A stretch of DNA of 64,000 bases from Candidatus Amesbacteria bacterium RIFCSPLOWO2_01_FULL_48_25 (GCA_001773695.1 MEXN01000005.1:67687-131686), one strand, 5' to 3'; positions 4,234-34,703 are shown, counted from the first letter of the stretch. Made by a program: numbers and translations. Notes: a model not told the origin generated them from the sequence alone.

Positions 4234-4579
4234 GGTGGAAGATATTTCTATCGAAGCAGACGGAAAGAGTTTGTCCCCTGAATGTGTATGAATGTGATTT
4301 GCCGTCTTCGACTTCTGCCATCCAGGGAGAGTATGGTTTGCCGGTCTTTTGATAAATTGTATAGAGAGTGACATAAGGGTGGGGGTGATTGTATAAATCT
4401 TTGTAGAAGTCGGGGAGGAGGAGAGAAGAGTCGTTTAGAAAATGGGGTTTTGTGGTTTGGAGGGGAATACCAGTACAGCTGGATGGAGAAAAAGGGAAGG
4501 CTTGGACGGGGGAGGTAATGCCCAATAGGGCAAGTGCGATGGCGAGGTAGATGTGGAGGTGGCGGATTTTTTCTGGCAT
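4157..4579 (-). CDS. Hypothetical secreted protein
   Basis: N-terminal signal peptide (IYLAIALALLGITSPVQA). Overlaps the 3' end of the preceding + strand ORF. Confidence 0.35.
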   Translation of the reverse strand: MPEKIRHLHIYLAIALALLGITSPVQAFPFSPSSCTGIPLQTTKPHFLNDSSLLLPDFYKDLYNHPHPYVTLYTIYQKTGKPYSPWMAEVEDGKSHSYTFRGQTLSVCFDRNIFHLTQSQPDLPHGVQTTSVTLGTPSAP

Positions 4580-4767
4580 TTCTGAGCTGATTATATACCC
4601 ACAAAGAACTTGTTAATAGGCAACAAAAATCCTATACAAATAATGTTGAACTAGCGCAATATTTACTAGTGTCTGGATATATATAGTAACTACTTTTTAT
4701 AAGCCCGGGGGGGCGGGGTGTAAGACCGAAGATTGAACGAAAATGTTGGATTTTGGAAAATTGATTG

Positions 4768-4796
4768 TTGACCGGAAAATTTTGGGAGATTATGAT
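4768..4796 (+). promoter_or_regulatory. Sigma70-like promoter of galU (TTGACC-17-TATGAT); -10 ends 7 nt before the ATG
   Basis: TTGACC at 4768-4773, a 17-bp spacer, TATGAT at 4791-4796, and the start codon at 4804. This implies a leaderless or near-leaderless transcript. Confidence 0.4.
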
Positions 4797-4803
4797 GCGG
4801 TGA

Positions 4804-5685
4804 ATGGCAAAGGTTCGTAAGGCGGTAATTCCAGCGGCGGGGTTTGGGACGCGGTTTTTACCGATGACCAAGGCCAGTCCCAAAGAGATGCTGCCGGTCG
4901 TGGACAAGCCGATTATCCAGCGGGTAGTGGAAGAATTGGTGGGAGCGGGAATAGAAGACATTATTATCGTCACCGGTTATCATAAGCGCAGTATCGAAGA
5001 TCACTTTGATGCGCCGTCTTCGGAGTTGACACAGATGTTGAAAAATAAACCAGAGATGCTTTTGAAAGTGGAAAAGATAGGTAAATTGGCTAATTTTGCC
5101 TATGTGCGGCAAAAGGGACCGTATGGCAACGGGACGCCACTTCTCAACGTGCGGCATTTGGTGGGTAACGAGCCGTTTATTTATACGTGGGGGGATGATT
5201 TTGTCGAGGCGGCGCCGGTCACCAGATTTGCCCAGATGGTTGAGTGTTATGAGAAGTATGGAGCGACTACTTTAAGTTGTATCCGGGCGACTCGCAACCA
5301 GGACTATGTGAAATATGGATTTGCATCGGGAAAAAAGTTGGCGGAGGGGGTAATTGAGGTGGAAAAGATTGTGGAGAAACCGGGGAAGGAGAATGCTCCT
5401 TCAGATCTGGCTACGGTAAGCGGATTTCTGGCGGCGCCTGAGATATTTGAATACGTGGATCAAGCGGCCTCTGGTTTGCAGCCGGGACATGAGTTTTACT
5501 ACAATGATGTATTGAAGCTGATGCTTTTAGCGGGTAAAAAGATCATAGCCCGGGAAATTGAAAACGCCAGGTTTTATGACACTGGGGATAAACTGGATTA
5601 TTTGAAAGCGGTTGTCGAATTTGGGATAAAGCACGAGGATATCGGGGAGGAGTTTTCCAAATGGATCGGAGGGCTAAAAGTATGA
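4804..5685 (+). CDS. galU: UTP--glucose-1-phosphate uridylyltransferase
   Basis: N-terminal AVIPAAGFGTRFLPMTKASPKEMLPVVDKP is the nucleotidyltransferase signature of GalU. Length 293 aa. Confidence 0.85.
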   Translation: MAKVRKAVIPAAGFGTRFLPMTKASPKEMLPVVDKPIIQRVVEELVGAGIEDIIIVTGYHKRSIEDHFDAPSSELTQMLKNKPEMLLKVEKIGKLANFAYVRQKGPYGNGTPLLNVRHLVGNEPFIYTWGDDFVEAAPVTRFAQMVECYEKYGATTLSCIRATRNQDYVKYGFASGKKLAEGVIEVEKIVEKPGKENAPSDLATVSGFLAAPEIFEYVDQAASGLQPGHEFYYNDVLKLMLLAGKKIIAREIENARFYDTGDKLDYLKAVVEFGIKHEDIGEEFSKWIGGLKV

Positions 5686-7840: not shown

Positions 7841-7894
7841 TGCGAGACGCGACGGCTCTTGACAAGAGGAAAGGGGATGTGATGTACTGGATGA

Positions 7895-18150: not shown

Positions 18151-18381
18151 ATGTATATTTCGCCGGTGACGCAGAAGGGGCAGGTGACTATTCCCGCGGG
18201 ATTGCGGGCGCAGTTTGGGGTGGAGCCTTATGGGAAAGTTAAGATCGAGCCGGGGAACGGATACATAAAAGTGTCGGCGACTGAGGATATTTTGGATCTG
18301 GCAGGAAAATGGAAAGCCCCACGGGGCAAGAACGCGTTGGCGGCCCGCCGGGCAATGGAGAAGACCTATAGGAGGTTTTAA
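18151..18381 (+). CDS. AbrB/SpoVT/MazE-family antitoxin
   Basis: KGQVTIPAGLRAQFGV...GKVKIE matches the swapped-hairpin (SpoVT/AbrB) signature. Its stop overlaps the PIN gene start. Confidence 0.7.
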   Translation: MYISPVTQKGQVTIPAGLRAQFGVEPYGKVKIEPGNGYIKVSATEDILDLAGKWKAPRGKNALAARRAMEKTYRRF

Positions 18382-18794
18382 TGAAGTATTTTCTGGATAC
18401 GAATGTCTTTTTGCGAGTGGCGGCTAGGGAAAATCAGAAAAGCTTTGAGGAGTGCAAACGGGTTTTGGAGAGGGTGAAACGGAGTGAGTTGGAAGCGGTG
18501 ACGGCGGGCCTGGTGTTGGCGGAAGTGGCTTGGACGTTGGGCTCGCATTACAAATGGGAGAAAAACCGGGTGGCGCTGGTTTTGAAAAGTATTGTTAACC
18601 TTGGAGGTTTGCGGTTTGTGAACGGTTACGGAGCGGCAGGGGCAGTAGAGCGTTTTTCGGAAAAAACGGTAAAGTTTGTGGACGCGATGATTGGCTCAAT
18701 CAGGGAGGTCGCGGATGGGGAGTGGATTGTGGTGTCGTATGACCGGGATTTTGACAAACTGGGAGTTAAAAGGGTTGAGCCGGGAGCAATATGA
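18381..18794 (+). CDS. PIN-domain toxin (VapC-like)
   Basis: The N-terminal FLDTNVFLR supplies the first acidic residue of the PIN fold, with further conserved acidic positions downstream. 137 aa. Confidence 0.75.
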   Translation: MKYFLDTNVFLRVAARENQKSFEECKRVLERVKRSELEAVTAGLVLAEVAWTLGSHYKWEKNRVALVLKSIVNLGGLRFVNGYGAAGAVERFSEKTVKFVDAMIGSIREVADGEWIVVSYDRDFDKLGVKRVEPGAI

Positions 18795-19456
18795 TTCAGG
18801 CGGTCATATTCGACTTGGATGGGACGGTTTTGGATAATGAGTCCCAATGGGAGGCCGCCTTTCGGGCGGGAGTGGACAGTTACCAGTCGACAGTTGTTCA
18901 GTTGGTGAGACAGCCAAATGGGTGGGTACATGAGCCGGGGATAGGGTTGGAGCGAAACTGGCTCAAGATTACCGAAGGGGATGTAGAGATGGCGAGGAAG
19001 TTGGCGGCGGAGACAAAAGCGAAGTATGTATCAAGCGTAGCGGATAACGGATTGGGGTTGAGGGACGGGGTGGTAGAAGTGGTGGAGAAAGTGAAAGAAA
19101 GAGGGTGGCGGACGGCTTTGGCGACCAGCTCCTTGTGGCATGTTGTGGAGCGGGAACTGGAAGAATTATCACTGCAGCTGGCGTTTGACGTGACAGTCAC
19201 CGGGGATGAGGTGCTGCTGCCTAAGCCGGATCCGGAAATATACACACTAACGGCCCAAAAATTGGGACTGGAGCCAGTGGAATGCCTGGTGATTGAGGAC
19301 GCGGTAGCGGGGGTGCGCTCGGCCGTGGAAGCGGGGTGCCCGGTCGTGGCCCTAGCGTCTGATTACGCGCCGGGTAAATTGTTGACTGCCGCGGCTGGTG
19401 AAGGAAAGATTTGGGTAGTGGAAAGTATGGAAGAAGTATTAAGCCTTGAGTTTTGA
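18791..19456 (+). CDS. HAD-superfamily hydrolase (beta-phosphoglucomutase-like)
   Basis: DxDGT motif I (VIFDLDGTVLD), a cap domain, and motif IV (IEDAVAGVRSAVEAGCPVVAL). Confidence 0.75.
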   Translation: MIQAVIFDLDGTVLDNESQWEAAFRAGVDSYQSTVVQLVRQPNGWVHEPGIGLERNWLKITEGDVEMARKLAAETKAKYVSSVADNGLGLRDGVVEVVEKVKERGWRTALATSSLWHVVERELEELSLQLAFDVTVTGDEVLLPKPDPEIYTLTAQKLGLEPVECLVIEDAVAGVRSAVEAGCPVVALASDYAPGKLLTAAAGEGKIWVVESMEEVLSLEF

Positions 19457-19876
19457 AATGGTGACAATTTCTAGTTTTTGAGAAAAATGTTCTAAACGCG
19501 AGTCGTTGGTAAGGAATGACGTACAAGCGTGTTCTTGGGCAAGGCTGAGTTGATAGCAGTCGGGGAGGGGGAAACCGTATTTTGCTTTGATGTGGGCGGC
19601 GTCGATCGCTGTTTGCATGTTGGGCTCGACCACTTTGAGGCTAGTGAGATTAGTAAATAAATTTAAGTATTTTTCGATTAAAGATTTGTTTTCCTGTTTC
19701 ATGGGATTTACCAGAACTTCTGTAACTGTAATGATTGAGGTAATAGACTGAAGCTGGTTTTGGAATATTTGATTAAATATTGGAGATATTTTGGGTGAAA
19801 AATCTGGATGGTTTTCGATCAAATAGATGAGCGCGTTCGTGTCTAGAAATATTTTGGGCGTCATGATTTTGACCAT
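19439..19876 (-). CDS. PIN-domain toxin (VapC-like)
   Basis: KIFLDTNALIYL near the N-terminus. The start is more likely MTPKIF (19864) than 19876. Confidence 0.7.
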   Translation of the reverse strand: MVKIMTPKIFLDTNALIYLIENHPDFSPKISPIFNQIFQNQLQSITSIITVTEVLVNPMKQENKSLIEKYLNLFTNLTSLKVVEPNMQTAIDAAHIKAKYGFPLPDCYQLSLAQEHACTSFLTNDSRLEHFSQKLEIVTISKLKA

Positions 19877-20100
19877 TCGTTTCTGAGGCTTTTGATGTAT
19901 TCATCTGAATTGCCGTATACACCAGTGCCTGAACCACGTAGATATGACATCCAGTCTTTGGGGGCGAGTTTGAGGCGGACTGCGTCTGGAGAGATTTCCC
20001 ACAGTAAATCGTCGCCCGGTTTGGCTCCGAGGGCTTTGCGGACTGGAGAGGGAATAAGGCGGTTGACTTTGGATTTTGTGTATTGCGGTAGGGTGTACAT
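19861..20100 (-). CDS. AbrB/SpoVT-family antitoxin (79 aa, start MYTLPQY)
   Basis: RLIPSPVRKALGAKPGDDLLWEI is the AbrB-type DNA-binding signature. The longer 128-aa ORF in the track extends through the operator and has a Cys-rich, unlikely N-terminus. Confidence 0.6.
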   Translation of the reverse strand: MYTLPQYTKSKVNRLIPSPVRKALGAKPGDDLLWEISPDAVRLKLAPKDWMSYLRGSGTGVYGNSDEYIKSLRNEWSKS

Positions 20101-20148
20101 GCTATCATAATAAACTCTTGATAGCATATTTGTCAAATGGTAGCATAG
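20099..20148 (-). promoter_or_regulatory. Minus-strand promoter/operator of the second VapBC-like module: TTGACA (20136-20131), TATTAT (20112-20107), inverted repeat ATGCTATCA..TGATAGCAT (20099-20107 / 20119-20127), third TAGCAT at 20141-20146
   Basis: The palindrome overlaps the -10, and the start codon (20100) lies 6 nt downstream of it. Confidence 0.45.
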
Positions 20149-20214
20149 GGCAAAAGCTTTTATGGCCATGCGGTTTATCTTATTGGTGCATAGTGGAGGA
20201 TATAAATAAATGCA

Positions 20215-20251
20215 TTGACATACTAAACATACTATGATATGTTTCATACTA
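20215..20251 (+). promoter_or_regulatory. Promoter (TTGACA 20215-20220, TATGTT 20238-20243) with three direct CATACTA repeats (20219, 20228, 20245) before the RHH antitoxin gene
   Basis: The repeats span the spacer and the start region. Confidence 0.4.
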
Positions 20252-20529
20252 TGCAGACAGTTACGACTAATTTAAGGATAGACGAGGAAGTTTACCGCCG
20301 AAATAGACTTATTGCGGTTGAGGAGGGGATGAGCTTTAACGAATATGTTAACCAGATATTGAGAGAAGAGCCGACCAGGAGGTATTTGGCATCCGCGAAA
20401 AAGACCAAAAAGTCGAAGACGGGAGAGGATTTTTATGAAGCTTTTGAAAAATTTATAGATGATCCGTACGAGCGAAAGCCGATGGGGTTATCCGAGGAGG
20501 ATAAGATCATTTACGGAGATAATGAATAA
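20251..20529 (+). CDS. Ribbon-helix-helix (CopG/Arc-like) antitoxin
   Basis: TTNLRIDEEVYRRNRLIAVEEGMSFNEYVNQILRE matches the RHH beta-strand plus two helices. The ATG at 20251 (MQTVTT) is preferred over 20239 because of the promoter position. Confidence 0.55.
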   Translation: MQTVTTNLRIDEEVYRRNRLIAVEEGMSFNEYVNQILREEPTRRYLASAKKTKKSKTGEDFYEAFEKFIDDPYERKPMGLSEEDKIIYGDNE

Positions 20530-20929
20530 AATCTTTTTGGATACGGGGTGGTTTAAGGCCGAGTTGGACGAGCGGGATGGTCATCACCTCCGGGCAAAAA
20601 ATATTTTCAGAAGAATTAAAAAAGAGAGGCTAGTGATGGTCACGACCAACTTTGTCCTCGATGAATCTTTTACTTTAATTAAAGATAAATGTGGTGTATT
20701 TAGGGCAAAAAGATTATTTGGGTTTTTGACCAAGTTTCCGGAAAAATTCGGAATCGAAAGGGTGACTTTGGAAGATGAAAGGAGAGTGTGGGATTGGTTT
20801 TGGCATGACTGGCGGGAGTTATCGTACACCGATTGTACCAGTTTTGCTGTTATGGAAAGGTTGGGCATAGAAAAGGTGGCGACTTTTGATGAGCATTTTG
20901 AAACGGCTGGATTTGAAGTGGTGAAGTGA
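20522..20929 (+). CDS. PIN-domain toxin (VapC-like)
   Basis: Starts MNKIFLDTGWF with the conserved acidic residues. It overlaps the antitoxin's 3' end. Confidence 0.7.
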   Translation: MNKIFLDTGWFKAELDERDGHHLRAKNIFRRIKKERLVMVTTNFVLDESFTLIKDKCGVFRAKRLFGFLTKFPEKFGIERVTLEDERRVWDWFWHDWRELSYTDCTSFAVMERLGIEKVATFDEHFETAGFEVVK

Positions 20930-20977
20930 TTGGGGATGTGGTGGAGGGGATGGAGGAAGTGAAAGGGTTGATGGAAG

Positions 20978-20986
20978 TGGTATAAT
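20978..20986 (+). promoter_or_regulatory. Extended -10 promoter TGGTATAAT, 9 nt upstream of the ATG at 20996
   Basis: TGnTATAAT with no good -35. The same TGGTATAAT..GTATG arrangement recurs at 23942-23959. Confidence 0.45.
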
Positions 20987-20995
20987 TTAGTTTGT

Positions 20996-21232
20996 ATGAC
21001 AAAGACGGGTGAGATTGCGAAGGTCGCTAAAGCCATTGCTAGCAGGATGGCTGAAAAACGTGATTCTAGGCTCTTCAGTGAGGAGCCGACTACGGGGGCT
21101 GATCCTAGGGAGGCTGGGTGGATTGAGACTGGGGAGACGGATGGTAAGGGAAGGAAAATACTTGTCAATAAGGATTTACCAGGGAGCAAGATGTATGAAG
21201 CGGGTGACAACTTTGAAGTGGTTGACGATTAA
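20996..21232 (+). CDS. Hypothetical protein (78 aa), first gene of the unknown-function operon
   Basis: Helical N-terminus, acidic C-terminus, no motif recognised. Confidence 0.45.
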   Translation: MTKTGEIAKVAKAIASRMAEKRDSRLFSEEPTTGADPREAGWIETGETDGKGRKILVNKDLPGSKMYEAGDNFEVVDD

Positions 21233-21288
21233 CTTGGGCGGTGAGATCTAGTGTGGGGATATTGGAAGAAATTTGGTAAGATTGGGGT

Positions 21289-22044
21289 ATGCCACCGGCG
21301 GCGCCAGCGAGTCCCGATATTGGTGCGAGGACAAGGTCTTTGGCTGAATTGACTAGACCACAAAAACCTGAGAATCTTGTCCAGGGTTTGTTTGGGAAGG
21401 GTGCAGTTGTTGGGGAGGACTTGGCTCAACGAGCTGAGATGGCGAGGTTAAGACAGGATGCGGCGGCGCTTGCGAGTGCAGAGCAGAAAATGATTACTGG
21501 TCAAGGGGGGTTGACGCCGAGAGAGAGCGAAGTGTTGACCGATTTCAAGTTGCGTAGTTTAGGGGTGGGGGAGAAAAAGGGAAACTCTGAAAAAAAAGCC
21601 ATGTCATTGGCTGTAGAGAAAGCAGAAACTAGAGAAAAATGGGATTTGGGGGTAGGGGCCATGAAGGTTGATACGTTAACTGGATCTCCTGAGTTGATAG
21701 TCGATCAGCGCGATGAAACGGTAGATGGCAAAACGACGATGGTGCCTCGGGTGGTAATGCTCCCTGTAGGCTCGACTCACAAATCTTTGGAAAGGCTTTG
21801 GGTTGATGATGGAAAGGGAGGAAGAAGGTATTTTAAGGCGGTTTCTGGACGGGAGGCTCAGGAAGCGGAGAGGAGAGTGGGAGAGATGATAGAAAAACTC
21901 AACAAAGACTCTCTGATTCCTGTGTATAAGGCTTCGAAAAGGATTTATTACCACGAGCTTACTGAAAAAGAGGTGCGGGTTGAGGACACAAGCAGATTTG
22001 TGGATGCTGGGAAGTATAGAAATCCTGTAGACAATAAAAAATAA
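21289..22044 (+). CDS. Hypothetical protein (251 aa)
   Basis: No TM helix and no recognised motif. Its stop abuts the next start. Confidence 0.45.
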   Translation: MPPAAPASPDIGARTRSLAELTRPQKPENLVQGLFGKGAVVGEDLAQRAEMARLRQDAAALASAEQKMITGQGGLTPRESEVLTDFKLRSLGVGEKKGNSEKKAMSLAVEKAETREKWDLGVGAMKVDTLTGSPELIVDQRDETVDGKTTMVPRVVMLPVGSTHKSLERLWVDDGKGGRRYFKAVSGREAQEAERRVGEMIEKLNKDSLIPVYKASKRIYYHELTEKEVRVEDTSRFVDAGKYRNPVDNKK

Positions 22045-22389
22045 GTGTGGTTTAATGGGGTGATGTTTGATGGGGTGTTGGATAAAGCGGGGTTTGTGGC
22101 TAGATTGAAGGAGTTGGGGTATTCGGACGAGGAGATTTCTTCTGAGTGGAAGAAGCTGGAAGACGAATTTTATCGGCAGGTATTAGTGGCTGTCTACGAT
22201 GGCCTTTCGGGTGAAGAAAAAGGCCGGTTGTCTCCGGATGGGGACTTTGGTGAGGCTATAGATAAGGTAGTGGCTTATGTTAAGGAGAACTTGTCCAAGC
22301 TGGACGGCAACGGGATTATTAAATCTGCTGCAATGCGGGCCCAGGAAAATTATTTGAAGGGATTTAAGGTTGAGGAGGGGATTTCGTGA
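22045..22389 (+). CDS. Hypothetical small protein (114 aa), paralog of the 23311-23679 product
   Basis: FVARLKELGYSDEEISSEWKKLEDEFYRQVLVAVYDGL aligns with FVRQLKEKGVSDEIITAEWEKIYKLFCLSYVMQVYDRL of the downstream ORF. Confidence 0.5.
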   Translation: MWFNGVMFDGVLDKAGFVARLKELGYSDEEISSEWKKLEDEFYRQVLVAVYDGLSGEEKGRLSPDGDFGEAIDKVVAYVKENLSKLDGNGIIKSAAMRAQENYLKGFKVEEGIS

Positions 22390-23339
22390 CGACTTTGACG
22401 AGTGGAGAAACAACTGTGGGGGCGCAGAATTTGGGAAGGGAATCTCTTGTGAGTTGGAAGGGGAGTGTTGGGGGAGCGTTTGAACTGATAAAAAATGGTG
22501 GACTTATTGTTCTGGGTGCGAGAATGGGAGTTGAGTTGGCAGGGCAATTGCCTCCCGAGGCCTGGAATTTACTTAGTACGTATGCTCAGCATTTTACAGG
22601 CGCCGGGAGAGAATCGGCGGAGGTGATGGTAGCGGGTGGAGTGGTGGTAGGATCGGCTCTGGCGGTTCCGGCAGTGGAGTGGGCGGTTGAATCGTTGGCT
22701 GGGCTCAGGAGACGGAAAGAGAAAAAATTTGAGCTGGATGTAAGAGGGGGAGTGAGCGAGAAGAGCAGGGGTGTTTATCATATGGCCATGGCTGAGTTAC
22801 CGAAGAATTTGTCTGCGGAGGAGATCCAAAAGGCCGTTCCAAGGACGATAGTTGAGTATTTGGCGGCTCGGGGAGTTGAGGGGGGTTTGTCTGGGGATAA
22901 ATTGGATAAAGGGGTTGAGGCGGTTGCTCAGGCGATGAGAGTCATTGAAGGAGATCCAGCTTTGAAAAAAGAGCTTAATGCGAAATATTCGATGCCGGGC
23001 AGGGAACCAAACCCGGTAGGTCAGGATTTGACAGAAAGGGAGAAGGTTTACTTGGGGGGGAGAATGTTTCAGCAGGCGGCATTGGAGAACCATGTGGATG
23101 GTGAGAGAGTGTCGGATAACTTGAAATTGTTGGGTTTGGACGGAAACAGGACAACGTATTTGGATGCAGTGGTTGGTGCGGTGGTGGGGAGTGAGCCAGT
23201 AATGAAATCGAGCCCAGTTGTTAAAAGGTTGGCAGAGTTGATAAGGGGGGGCGAGGATGGGGGAAAGGTATACGACGAGGCAGTAAATGGAATTAGAGGT
23301 TTGATGGGGGGTGTTGGAGGTCGGGGGAGAAATGGATAG
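22386..23339 (+). CDS. Hypothetical Gly/Ala-rich protein (317 aa)
   Basis: Overlaps both neighbouring ORFs by 4-29 bp. One hydrophobic stretch (GGVVVGSALAVPAVEWAV). Confidence 0.45.
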   Translation: MTTLTSGETTVGAQNLGRESLVSWKGSVGGAFELIKNGGLIVLGARMGVELAGQLPPEAWNLLSTYAQHFTGAGRESAEVMVAGGVVVGSALAVPAVEWAVESLAGLRRRKEKKFELDVRGGVSEKSRGVYHMAMAELPKNLSAEEIQKAVPRTIVEYLAARGVEGGLSGDKLDKGVEAVAQAMRVIEGDPALKKELNAKYSMPGREPNPVGQDLTEREKVYLGGRMFQQAALENHVDGERVSDNLKLLGLDGNRTTYLDAVVGAVVGSEPVMKSSPVVKRLAELIRGGEDGGKVYDEAVNGIRGLMGGVGGRGRNG

Positions 23340-23679
23340 CGCGAATTTGTATGATAGGATTTTGGGGAAGGAGGAGTTTGTAAGGCAACTAAAAGAGAAA
23401 GGTGTTTCGGATGAGATTATTACTGCGGAGTGGGAGAAAATCTATAAGTTGTTTTGTTTATCGTATGTCATGCAAGTTTATGACAGACTACCGATGAGCT
23501 TGCAGAAAGAGGCGGAGATGGGTCTGGACATAACTAAGGCCGAAGGCGCGACTGAGTTTCTACAAAGAGTTTCCAAGCATACGAAAGAGTTTGGTGGTAA
23601 AATGGACGTGGCAGATTTAGTTAAGGAGGCTGCCAACGAGGCATACAAGATGTATGTTGAACTAGAGGAGAAAAAATGA
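23311..23679 (+). CDS. Hypothetical small protein (122 aa), paralog of the 22045-22389 product
   Basis: See the paralog entry at 22045-22389. Confidence 0.5.
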   Translation: MLEVGGEMDSANLYDRILGKEEFVRQLKEKGVSDEIITAEWEKIYKLFCLSYVMQVYDRLPMSLQKEAEMGLDITKAEGATEFLQRVSKHTKEFGGKMDVADLVKEAANEAYKMYVELEEKK

Positions 23680-23924
23680 ATATTGATGCTAGTATGGCTG
23701 AAAAAACAGGTCATTCGCCGGAGAATCCTTTGGCTAAAGGAAAGAGAATATTTTTGGGGGCGCTGGCTCTGGCTAACACCGCAGTGGCTGGAGTAGGGAT
23801 TGGAGTGCTGGCAATGGGTGAGTTGGGTCATTCTGCGGCCCTAGCGGGGGCTGAAGGATTGGTGGGCGGTGTGTTATTCGCTGCAGTTGTGAACAAAGTG
23901 GTTAATAAGGCATTCGGGTATTGA
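23676..23924 (+). CDS. Hypothetical glycine-zipper membrane peptide (82 aa)
   Basis: GALALANTAVAGVGIGVLAMGELGHSAALAGAEGLVGGVLFAAVV contains repeated GxxxG/AxxxG motifs. Last gene of the operon. Confidence 0.45.
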   Translation: MNIDASMAEKTGHSPENPLAKGKRIFLGALALANTAVAGVGIGVLAMGELGHSAALAGAEGLVGGVLFAAVVNKVVNKAFGY

Positions 23925-23956
23925 TCGGTGTTGGCATTTTGTGGTATAATGAATGT

Positions 23957-24070
23957 ATGTTGAAAGAGTTGGCTCAAAAGCTAACGATTATTCGAGAGGC
24001 TCGGGAGGCTGCATTAGCGGCAGCGAGAGAGGCTGATCAGCAAGAGCGGTTAGGGCCGCTTTATGGGTGA
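23957..24070 (+). CDS. Hypothetical 37-aa helical peptide on a leaderless transcript
   Basis: MLKELAQKLTIIREAREAALAAAREADQQERLGPLYG. Preceded by TGGTATAAT (23942-23950), which places the ATG at the predicted transcription start. Too short for the ORF track. Confidence 0.25.
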   Translation: MLKELAQKLTIIREAREAALAAAREADQQERLGPLYG

Positions 24071-28059: not shown

Positions 28060-29025
28060 CTATTTGAAGAGAGTGAGGGAGGAAATTTGGGCGGTGACGA
28101 AGGCGACGTAAAGAGTGATCAAAACGATGCCTTCAAGATATGAAAGACGGTTTTTGGAATGGGTGAAGACCAAAAAAAGCACTAATGAGAAAACCATAAA
28201 GATGGCGGAGATCTCGATTTGTATTTGGGAATTGACGACGAAAGGGGAGAAAATTGCTAAAAGTGAGATGATGAAGGTGTTGGCGGCGGCGCTGCCTAAA
28301 ATGTCACCGATGACCAGATTGGTATGACGGCCGCGGATGGCGGCGATGGCGACTGAGATTTCGGGAATATTGGTGCCCAGTGACAAAAACAGAGTACCAA
28401 TGACGAGAGGGGGGATGCGGAGGAGGGTGGCCAGGCGGAGGGAGGAAAAAAGGACAGCGCGGGAAGACAAAACTACTCCAATGAGCCCTACCAGAGTGAG
28501 AAATACTGTGTTTAGAAATTTTTGGTTGAGCAAATTTTCGTCGAGAGGCGGAGAATCCGGCGGACGAAGTTTGTAGACGTATAGCAAATAGCCAATATAG
28601 AGCAAGATTAGAAATACACCGTCTAGTCGGGTAAGGCGGGAATCAAGAAGAAGAATAAGGGGGGAGAGAATGAGAACGGCAATATGCAGTATTCGGTCGG
28701 GATGGGCCAGTTCGTCGCGAATAATAGCATTGGGATGAAAGACGGCGGTGCCGCCAGCGATAAGGGACAGAAGAACAATGGTGGCGCCAAAGAGATTGCC
28801 CAGAGAAAGTTGGGGGTTTCCAGAAAGAATGGAATTAACTGCGATTCCGGTTTCGGGGATGGAAGTGGCGATGCCTAAAATAATAAATCCGGTAAGGAAT
28901 TGGGAGAGGCGGAGAAAGACTCCCAGACGGGAGACTGCGGTAACTAGATAGCCTGCAGTTTTGCCTAAAATTATGAGGCCAATTAGACAGGTGAAGAAAT
29001 AAAAGAGCAGGTGGACAGGGACCAT
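28060..29025 (-). CDS. Ca2+/cation antiporter (CaCA family, YrbG-like)
   Basis: Two alpha-repeat motifs, GNLFGATI and GDILGSAAANTF, in a 10-TM protein. Confidence 0.75.
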   Translation of the reverse strand: MVPVHLLFYFFTCLIGLIILGKTAGYLVTAVSRLGVFLRLSQFLTGFIILGIATSIPETGIAVNSILSGNPQLSLGNLFGATIVLLSLIAGGTAVFHPNAIIRDELAHPDRILHIAVLILSPLILLLDSRLTRLDGVFLILLYIGYLLYVYKLRPPDSPPLDENLLNQKFLNTVFLTLVGLIGVVLSSRAVLFSSLRLATLLRIPPLVIGTLFLSLGTNIPEISVAIAAIRGRHTNLVIGDILGSAAANTFIISLLAIFSPFVVNSQIQIEISAIFMVFSLVLFLVFTHSKNRLSYLEGIVLITLYVAFVTAQISSLTLFK

Positions 29026-34317: not shown

Positions 34318-34703
34318 GTGGGTGGTTGGGTTGCTTCTTGAAGAAATTTTGATTTTATTTCCCCAGCCATTTGATTAAGTTCGGCTGGTGTGTAGGGTCC
34401 TTTATCACTGGCATTAAGGGCCTCAGTAATTAGAGCTTGGATTTGCGCGGCTGTGGAGTCAACGTATGTATGAGACATTTTAATATTGAGATGCCGGTCC
34501 GCCATGATAGCTTTGTATGTGGCCAAGAATAAGTATCCAGGTGCTTGTTTCCAGATTTCTTCGGGGTTGGTTACACCAGGAGTGTTTTTTACAAGATATG
34601 GTTTGAGAATTGTGGATTCAGCTTTGGTATAATCCCGGGTTGGGTTGTCTGGTTGCCCGATGGGACGACCAAGCTTGAAACTATAATTTTTTTCGTCTCC
34701 CAT
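34314..34703 (-). CDS. Hypothetical protein
   Basis: 129-aa ORF convergent with ychF. Confidence 0.4.
   Translation of the reverse strand: MGDEKNYSFKLGRPIGQPDNPTRDYTKAESTILKPYLVKNTPGVTNPEEIWKQAPGYLFLATYKAIMADRHLNIKMSHTYVDSTAAQIQALITEALNASDKGPYTPAELNQMAGEIKSKFLQEATQPPT

Follow-up and report, generated by a model that had tools for sequence, protein, structure and literature searches.

Six co-oriented genes (g1 to g6) on the plus strand of a stretch of DNA from Candidatus Amesbacteria, of the Candidate Phyla Radiation (CPR)/Patescibacteria, were found to contain two copies of a two-gene module. The stretch, referred to here as the window, is chromosome-like and 64,000 nucleotides (nt) long, and the genes occupy positions 20996 to 23924. 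In each module (g3-g4 and g5-g6), a gene for an acidic protein of ~110 amino acids (aa), predicted to be all-helical, directly precedes a gene for a hydrophobic Gly/Ala-rich partner. Sequence and profile comparisons place g3 and g5 in a previously undescribed family that forms part of no named family, and the two-gene module is restricted to the Patescibacteria. The anatomy of this system (the new family, the conserved pairing and a corrected definition of the module) is solid, and its function is speculative.

The pairing was surveyed in 11 modules at 10 loci, comprising the two modules in the window and those of loci L009, L010 and L012 to L018, with the contexts of nine further family members being utilized. 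In 11/11 modules, the gene directly 3' of the family gene either overlapped it by 4 to 14 nt or followed after a gap of 1 to 9 nt, and its product carried one or more Gly/Ala-rich hydrophobic segments starting at about residue 15 to 32. The partners differed widely in length, with 317 aa for g3-g4, 82 aa for g5-g6, 401 aa in L009, 109 aa in L010, 151 aa in L012, 113 aa in L013, 150 aa in L014, 119 aa in L015, 143 aa in L016, 371 aa in L017 and 111 aa in L018. The last of these loci was examined once the pairing pattern had been stated, and it fitted. All partners began with a hydrophilic N-terminus of ~15 to 30 residues; next came one or two hydrophobic stretches rich in Gly and Ala, often with a Trp or basic residue before them, then a basic cluster and finally a tail of variable length. 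Using an ad hoc, post hoc criterion (an uncharged 17-mer with a Kyte-Doolittle value of ≥1.0 and ≥6 Gly plus Ala residues), a hydrophobic segment was detected in 10/11 partners and in 18/52 background open reading frames (ORFs) of the window (Fisher p = 0.0008). The clearest membrane candidates among the partners were g6 and g4.

A first-pass annotation of this locus had recognized g3 and g5 as paralogs, and this was borne out by an identity of 33% over 104 aa (E = 2e-12). The same annotation had proposed that the duplicated unit consisted of a larger protein followed by a small paralog. This proposal failed, as the 251-aa g2 and 317-aa g4 products exhibited no similarity (best E = 0.81). Furthermore, the upstream neighbor of the family gene varied, being frr in L012, absent in L013, where the pair stands alone, and an unrelated gene in L014, L016 and L017. 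As the upstream neighbor was not conserved and downstream coupling was present in 11/11 modules, the repeating modules are g3-g4 and g5-g6. This correction changes the pairs that are relevant, which become g5 with g6 and g3 with g4, not g2 with g3 and g4 with g5.

Comparison with other genomes indicated a composite origin for the cluster. Three syntenic relatives (L010/L011, L014 and L015) had the order cysS, a gene for a protein of 212 to 219 aa, a HAD hydrolase gene, a counterpart of the third VapBC pair of the window, zero to two variable genes, a family gene and a short hydrophobic partner; L015 additionally had genes for 58- and 775-aa proteins between the HAD gene and the VapBC pair. Identities between the relatives and the window were 54 to 65% for CysRS, 51 to 56% for HAD, 46 to 50% for the PIN protein of the third pair (PIN3) and 30 to 40% for the family protein, which in each of these relatives resembled g5 more closely than g3. 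Nothing similar to g1, g2, g4 or g6 was detectable in these three genomes, and the number of modules varied, with one in the relatives and two in the window. In L009, which stems from another metagenome, the order was a g2 orthologue, a g3 orthologue (44% identity) and the 401-aa g4-like gene. The presence of this trio in L009 and of a single g5-g6-like module in the syntenic relatives indicated that the cluster is, on this comparative evidence, a g2-g3-g4 trio juxtaposed to a resident g5-g6 pair, with a lineage-specific g1, rather than the product of local duplication; the divergence of the two modules is ancient.

A single machine of six genes, arisen by duplication of a unit of large protein plus small paralog, is quite unlikely in the light of these data. 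The co-orientation and tight packing of the genes would suit such a machine, as would the presence of one promoter-like site upstream with the next only after g6 and the recurrence of the g2-g3-g4 order in L009. The absence of any relationship between g2 and g4, however, argues against it, as do the syntenic relatives, which keep one family gene with its downstream partner and lack g1, g2 and g4, and the upstream neighbors in L012, L013, L014, L016 and L017, which are unrelated or housekeeping genes.

The extent of the g3/g5 family was examined with an exhaustive HMMER search, in which a four-sequence profile (g3, g5 and two variants) was compared with 1.84 billion representatives. This search, the only one to reveal the family, detected 66 proteins at E ≤ 1e-3, including 22 that reached E ≤ 1e-10, and ~62 clusters were considered genuine. 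These members were 100 to 135 aa in length and aligned end to end. Three large proteins were discarded as artefacts, two (P0025 and P0061) being of the repeat or retroelement type and one (P0063) a WHEP-TRS protein; a likeness of the N-terminal motif to WHEP-TRS was rejected on an hhalign probability of 1.4%. The family motif consists of M-[YF]-D-x-x-L-x-K-x-x-F near the N-terminus followed by E-W-x-K and then F. The proteins are acidic, with a median isoelectric point (pI) of 4.96 and a pI below 6 in 57/64 members. An AlphaFold2 model of g3 from a 64-sequence alignment had five helices, with a predicted local distance difference test score (pLDDT) of 81 and a predicted template modeling score of 0.69.

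Searches for known relatives were negative. Each library model, Pfam included, matched at most one of the 64 members, and the family profile detected nothing meaningful among Protein Data Bank (PDB) sequences, as was the case for g2-like and g4-like profiles and for g6 alone. Foldseek searches with the g3 model gave best E values of 1.6 in the PDB and 0.57 in BFVD. In word-indexed searches of 5.8 billion proteins, g2 and g4 matched only themselves and the g3/g5 profile only close variants. Two scans of GTDB genome contigs produced no match, not even to the source species; a metagenome scan with one family alignment (A5) produced nothing, and a scan with another (A8) produced only L009 and one probably chimeric contig. 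No relatives were found in IMG/VR, INPHARED phages, BFVD or plasmid collections. The first-pass annotation could name no family for any of the six products, and none was matched in Pfam, PHROGs, NCBIfam or PADLOC; NCBI proteins identical to g2 and g5 carry the name hypothetical protein.

Allelic variation was detected within both modules. Contigs L007 (1-717) and L008 (1-595), corresponding to window positions 23241-23957, had a g5 allele that was 79% identical in protein. In L007, 69/74 nucleotide differences fell within 23321-23607, with a divergence of 24% in this tract and flanks that were ~99% identical. Only one difference occurred in the next 350 nt, a stretch that takes in the last part of g5, the whole of g6 and the following promoter; g6 was identical at 81/82 residues in the strain with the 79%-identical g5. 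The differences in g5 were mostly at third codon positions, with a dS of about 1 and a dN/dS of 0.12. These sequence data indicate that the g5 allele is a recombination mosaic between diverged strains in the sampled populations and that g5 is, by this measure, under purifying selection. The third-position bias and low dN/dS point to ordinary, old divergence that was imported by recombination, and on the same two grounds a diversity-generating retroelement was rejected as the source of the variable tract. The g3 gene is also polymorphic, with a variant, P0005, in existence. In contig L005, a run-of-N gap (7868-7877; window 22202-22239) lies inside g3 and is flanked by three variant sites that agree with P0005; the assembly was probably interrupted there by heterogeneity in g3 among strains.

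The combination of a coupled, acidic, soluble protein with a hydrophobic, mostly basic partner, as in known neutralizer or escort pairs, led us to favor, tentatively, a toxin-antitoxin (TA)-like or immunity-like module in which the soluble protein may sequester a membrane-depolarizing hairpin. This explanation was also favored by the self-contained nature of the module, which occurs in varied contexts and in variable copy number among relatives, by the rapid divergence of the partners and by the location beside VapBC and AbiE modules. The acidic, cytosolic, all-helical ~110-aa protein (g3 or g5) is translationally coupled to the downstream partner (g4 or g6), which by this mechanism would insert into the membrane as a helical hairpin. 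The hairpin would self-associate by small-xxx-small packing and make the membrane leaky, and the cotranslated acidic protein would bind the hydrophobic helices in the cytoplasm and hold the partner inactive. The pair could possibly act in abortive infection or addiction, and a role in defense or competition would be plausible. Physical binding of the two proteins, toxicity, its neutralization and the biological role are inferred.

Several observations weigh against this explanation. Most type II antitoxins have a DNA-binding domain and autoregulate through operator repeats. Helix-turn-helix (HTH), ribbon-helix-helix (RHH) or AbrB domains were matched neither by g3 or g5 nor consistently among the 64 members, PADLOC defense models had no consistent match among the family members, and no operator-like repeats were detected at the promoter (20880-21300). 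Across genomes, the soluble partner was better conserved and the membrane partner more variable, which is the opposite of the usual pattern in TA systems. Partner length varies between 82 and 401 aa, and the long partners have cytoplasmic domains of ~250 aa, for which a simple pore-former would have no need. Five partners (L009, L014, L015, L016 and L018) were weakly hydrophobic, with Kyte-Doolittle values below 1.5, and membrane insertion of these is presumed. In leave-one-out tests with profile hidden Markov models of the partner N-termini, the omitted partner was not recovered (ranks 4 to 239; E ≥ 0.24), so that a common origin of the partners is unproven and the shared feature may be compositional. 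Among the long partners, alignments were weak, with E = 0.017 over the full length between the L009 (L009_401) and L017 (L017_371) proteins and E = 0.09 between g4 and L017_371. Finally, VapBC adjoined the module at four loci and AbiEii/DUF6922 adjoined it at L014; as the four TA-associated loci are syntenic, they count as one independent observation. Family loci outside these four sit in unrelated contexts.

The strongest rival, which we consider possible though rather doubtful, is that a nontoxic, lineage-specific membrane protein has in the soluble protein its dedicated chaperone, insertion factor or cytoplasmic subunit. The two would then make up a membrane complex with a structural or regulatory role, for example as an element of membrane stress, curvature or scaffolding. 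Such a role would fit the pairing and coupling in 11/11 modules, the greater conservation of the soluble component and the sizeable cytoplasmic domains, with a common motif, in the long partners. It would also fit native codon usage, the occurrence of the module at the same chromosomal position in genomes whose CysRS proteins are 54 to 65% identical and the proximity of several loci to the housekeeping genes frr, secE-nusG and ileS. Against this rival, the number of modules and the type of partner vary among close relatives, with two diverged tandem copies in the window, and mosaic alleles occur in the population. Furthermore, the partners have diverged beyond detection between genomes whose flanking genes are 50 to 65% identical, which would be unusual for a structural complex. 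A lead connecting the partners to the Rv2743c/PspA partner was rejected, as one partner matched and did so below the cutoff.

The sequestration mechanism has experimentally supported parallels in known systems. The small membrane toxins PanT depolarize the membrane and are neutralized by complex formation with PanA (PMC8832971), and the modules described here resemble PanA/PanT in being bicistronic, in having a soluble protein beside a small protein with predicted transmembrane (TM) helices and in lying beside TA modules. Unlike PanA, 0/64 family members had a Panacea (DUF4065) domain, no DNA-binding domain was detected and the partners are up to 401 aa long. In Staphylococcus aureus, ExiB sequesters the EsxX glycine zipper while this is still cytoplasmic, ahead of its arrival at the membrane (PMC12744356), which is the mechanism proposed here, with a soluble protein encoded beside a glycine-zipper depolarizing domain. 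[quoted passage not shown] VapBC pairs are similar in gene order, with the small gene first, in overlap and in occupying the same hot spot, and in three relatives the third VapBC pair keeps its position together with the module. The difference is that VapC is an RNase with a PIN domain, and the g3 to g6 proteins are unlike PIN proteins or AbrB/RHH antitoxins. A likeness to type II TA systems in general lies in the adjacent, tightly spaced genes encountered in 11/11 modules.

In a different proposal, the hydrophobic proteins would act outside the producer, as exported or translocated effectors or as bacteriocin-like peptides inserting into the membranes of competitors or of the host cell of this probable episymbiont, with the acidic partner as a secretion chaperone or cytoplasmic immunity protein. 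This is unlikely. In support, g6 is similar to small membrane-active peptides rich in Gly and matches, below threshold, the translocated two-TM effector SepZ/EspZ, the rapid divergence of the partners and the mosaic g5 allele would fit an arms race, and small acidic helical partners are known beside membrane-active toxins (Lap proteins, ExiAB with EsxX, and Cdz). No transporter, type I secretion system, T7SS or double-glycine leader was found within 10 kb on either side, however, and the hydrophobic segment starts 15 to 30 residues in, which does not resemble a Sec signal peptide. The basic cluster that follows the second hydrophobic helix predicts a cytoplasmic C-terminus, such that the protein would stay in the membrane of its producer. 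In Foldseek searches, the g3 model (best E = 1.6) matched neither a bacteriocin-immunity protein nor a chaperone.

Glycine-zipper proteins mediate contact-dependent killing by the Cdz system of Caulobacter (PMC5380434) and resemble the present partners as small, Gly-zipper-rich, hydrophobic proteins encoded in a compact operon with protective partners. In the window, the neighborhood contains no ABC transporter or HlyD-like gene, and the partner is soluble. Cdz reportedly requires an adjacent type I secretion system (an ABC transporter and an adaptor), and its immunity protein is said to be a membrane protein. For EspZ/SepZ and the chlamydial Inc proteins, the likeness consists of a small acidic partner and a bilobed hydrophobic hairpin protein; the g6 matches lie under the curated cutoffs (SepZ/EspZ, 19.1 bits against a cutoff of 27.3, with a weak sub-threshold match to the Inc protein InaC) and may be compositional, and no type III secretion genes are present here. 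Class II bacteriocins have a double-glycine or Sec leader and a four-helix-bundle immunity protein of the EntA_Immun-type fold; g6 had no Bacteriocin_IIc match and one partner matched with E = 0.52, and no immunity protein was present among the 50 PDB Foldseek matches listed for the g3 model. Every named family tested fails at least one defining feature, and the module joins no described family; at most, its mode of action is of a known type, in which a soluble neutralizer or chaperone accompanies a membrane-active hairpin.

A variant of the effector proposal, in which the proteins are Patescibacteria-specific effectors and the chaperone keeps the hairpin soluble until a secretion apparatus inserts it in the membrane of the host of the episymbiont, in analogy to the two-TM effector EspZ and the chlamydial Inc proteins with their chaperones, is conceivable and very unlikely; divergence and mosaicism would then reflect host-symbiont conflict. 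A remnant phage lysis cassette (holin and antiholin) is extremely improbable. The size and two-TM topology of g6 are like those of class II holins, and single family members weakly match holin models; these matches, however, involved 1/64 members (E = 0.007) and fell on the soluble protein rather than the membrane one, no endolysin or phage genes lie nearby and no relatives were found in the viral collections IMG/VR, INPHARED and BFVD.

The six ORFs are genuine, and their coordinates and codon usage confirmed the tightly packed, co-oriented arrangement of the first-pass annotation (Table 1). In a test for which 23 long window genes served as the training set (mean, 0.38; minimum, 0.19), codon-usage log-odds in frame 0 were 0.30 to 0.48 per codon for all six ORFs and were negative in the other two frames, which indicated that the ORFs are coding and compositionally native. 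The locus was present on 16 contigs from several assemblies at ≥99.98% identity. Minus-strand ORFs at 20584-21210 and 23478-23831 were rejected as genes, as codon-usage scores favored the plus-strand frames; few TAG and TGA stops occur on the minus strand, which is poor in G, and long spurious ORFs consequently arise readily. GC skew, (G-C)/(G+C), was very strong and positive over the whole 64 kb, with values of 0.22 to 0.49 in every 2-kb bin. The skew persisted over a true minus-strand gene, Na_Ca_ex (28060-29025), and is thus a property of the strand and not only of gene orientation; values of 0.28 to 0.43 were also found in the related loci L009, L010, L014 and L015 but not in more distant family loci.

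Table 1. Features of the g1 to g6 cluster and of its surroundings in the window
Feature	Position	Strand	Description
Left neighborhood	18151..20929	mixed	Three VapBC-type pairs (PIN-domain genes with small upstream partners)
VapBC-type pair 1	18151-18381/18381-18794	+	
HAD hydrolase gene	18791-19456		Between the first two VapBC pairs, overlapping PIN genes at both ends
VapBC-type pair 2	19439-19876/19861-20247	-	
VapBC-type pair 3	20239-20529/20522-20929	+	
Promoter-like site	20959..20986	+	-35-like GTGAAA, 16-nt spacer, extended -10 TGGTATAAT at 20978-20986
g1	20996..21232	+	78 aa, acidic (pI 5.0), soluble; no homologue found
g2	21289..22044	+	251 aa, basic (pI 9.2), soluble
g3	22045..22389	+	114 aa (108 aa from ATG 22063); family of ~110-aa acidic all-helical proteins
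g4	22386..23339	+	317 aa; Gly/Ala-rich hydrophobic segments ~28-50 and ~76-104, then RRRKEKK and a helical C-terminal domain
g5	23332..23679	+	115 aa from ATG 23332 (122 aa from GTG 23311); second family member
g6	23676..23924	+	82 aa; Gly/Ala-rich TM segments ~24-48 and ~53-76; Shine-Dalgarno GGAG upstream
Right boundary	23942..24070	+	Second exact TGGTATAAT at 23942-23950, 6 nt before ATG 23957

The junctions between the genes agreed with the first-pass annotation apart from minor corrections. Overlaps of 4 nt were present at g3/g4 (GTGA) and g5/g6 (ATGA), and g4 and g5 overlap by 29 nt from GTG 23311 or by 8 nt from ATG 23332; g1 and g2 are separated by 56 nt, and g2 and g3 abut, with TAA followed by GTG, unless ATG 22063 is the start of g3, in which case 18 nt separate them. 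The start of g5 is more probably ATG 23332 than GTG 23311, as the former is used by gene callers and by the orthologue P0004. The strong Shine-Dalgarno sequences of g4 and g6 are located within the 3' ends of g3 and g5. Overall, g1 to g6 form a tightly packed cluster that is probably cotranscribed.

The extended -10 element reported 9 nt before the first ATG was present, as TGGTATAAT, without a Shine-Dalgarno sequence, such that the g1 transcript would be nearly leaderless. The window contains three copies of this motif against 1.4 expected, a number reached in 19/100 shuffles and hence not significant alone; the third copy is at 34625-34633. The copies before g1 and just after g6 bracket the cluster. 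The ORF at ATG 23957 encodes 37 aa (MLKELAQKLTIIREAREAALAAAREADQQERLGPLYG) with native codon usage and is possibly a small leaderless gene. Its promoter and initial bases were identical in the divergent-strain contig L007. The second copy would mark the start of the next transcription unit, and both copies would yield nearly leaderless mRNAs. No Rfam match was obtained, and the promoter region (20880-21300) contained no direct or inverted repeats.

Of the genes outside the two modules, g1 is probably lineage-specific, given its absence from syntenic relatives, and lies outside the conserved module. The g2 gene accompanies the g3-type module as an upstream accessory: over the C-terminal ~70 aa of its product, identity to the gene immediately upstream of the L009 g3 orthologue was 66%, and g2 weakly resembled the 322-aa product of the upstream gene of L015 (L015_322; E = 0.15). 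The C-terminal domain of g4 has a motif, HVD..VS.N...G.DG, in common with L009_401 and L017_371, and a single-sequence structure model of g4 was unusable (pLDDT, 41). A contig from the Joint Genome Institute (L021, 630-1373) was 98.4% identical to window positions 21942-22570 and then continued in unrelated, C-richer sequence that replaced g4 after about codon 62. The tail (FHIGGYQVCQKWLKDRKGRTL...) presumably resembles the C-termini of type IIG restriction-modification enzymes, and the shift in composition at the junction points most probably to a chimeric assembly.

The designation of g6 as a terminal glycine-zipper peptide held in that g6 is a small, Gly/Ala-rich membrane protein, with only one strict glycine-zipper match. 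Its hydrophobic segments had Kyte-Doolittle values of 1.88 and 1.93 and were rich in small-xxx-small spacing. No match above the gathering score was obtained with the Pfam glycine-zipper families (Gly-zipper_Omp, _YMGG and _OmpA); the only Pfam matches of g6 were the sub-threshold one to SepZ and one to DUF7322 (E = 0.31).

The three VapBC-type modules directly upstream of the cluster were confirmed, with the HAD hydrolase gene interrupting them. A HAD gene next to VapBC was also present in L010, L014 and L015, an unusually stable interleaving of housekeeping and TA genes. In L014 (7899-8880; GCA_964356705.1), a DUF6922/AbiEii pair directly follows the module, which suggests that this site gathers TA or abortive-infection genes in several genomes. 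In L010, the slot of g1 is occupied by a gene (4361-5197) whose 278-aa product contains MHELSH, a motif of the HExxH type, and matches nothing in Pfam; this product may be an uncharacterized metalloprotease in the same variable slot. A 7TM_transglut gene adjoins the module in two related loci (L018, 7801-10992; L013, 74-1057). In L018 to L020, genes for ATPgrasp_ST and a RimK-type ATP-grasp protein follow on the same strand, and the module may be functionally linked to a peptide-modification system in this sublineage.

The genomes of CPR/Patescibacteria are small and consist largely of genes for proteins without an assigned function. The present work defines a recurrent unit within this group, with a family of ~62 clusters, a predicted fold that was unmatched among solved and viral structures and a hydrophobic partner in 11/11 modules. 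If the modules do consist of a membrane toxin and a cytoplasmic sequesterer, they would represent a new neutralizer fold for TA and immunity biology and an experimentally tractable pair of genes, only 600 bp long in the case of g5-g6, with which to approach organisms that are difficult to culture. If the hydrophobic proteins instead act on host membranes, the modules would bear on the manipulation of hosts by episymbionts.

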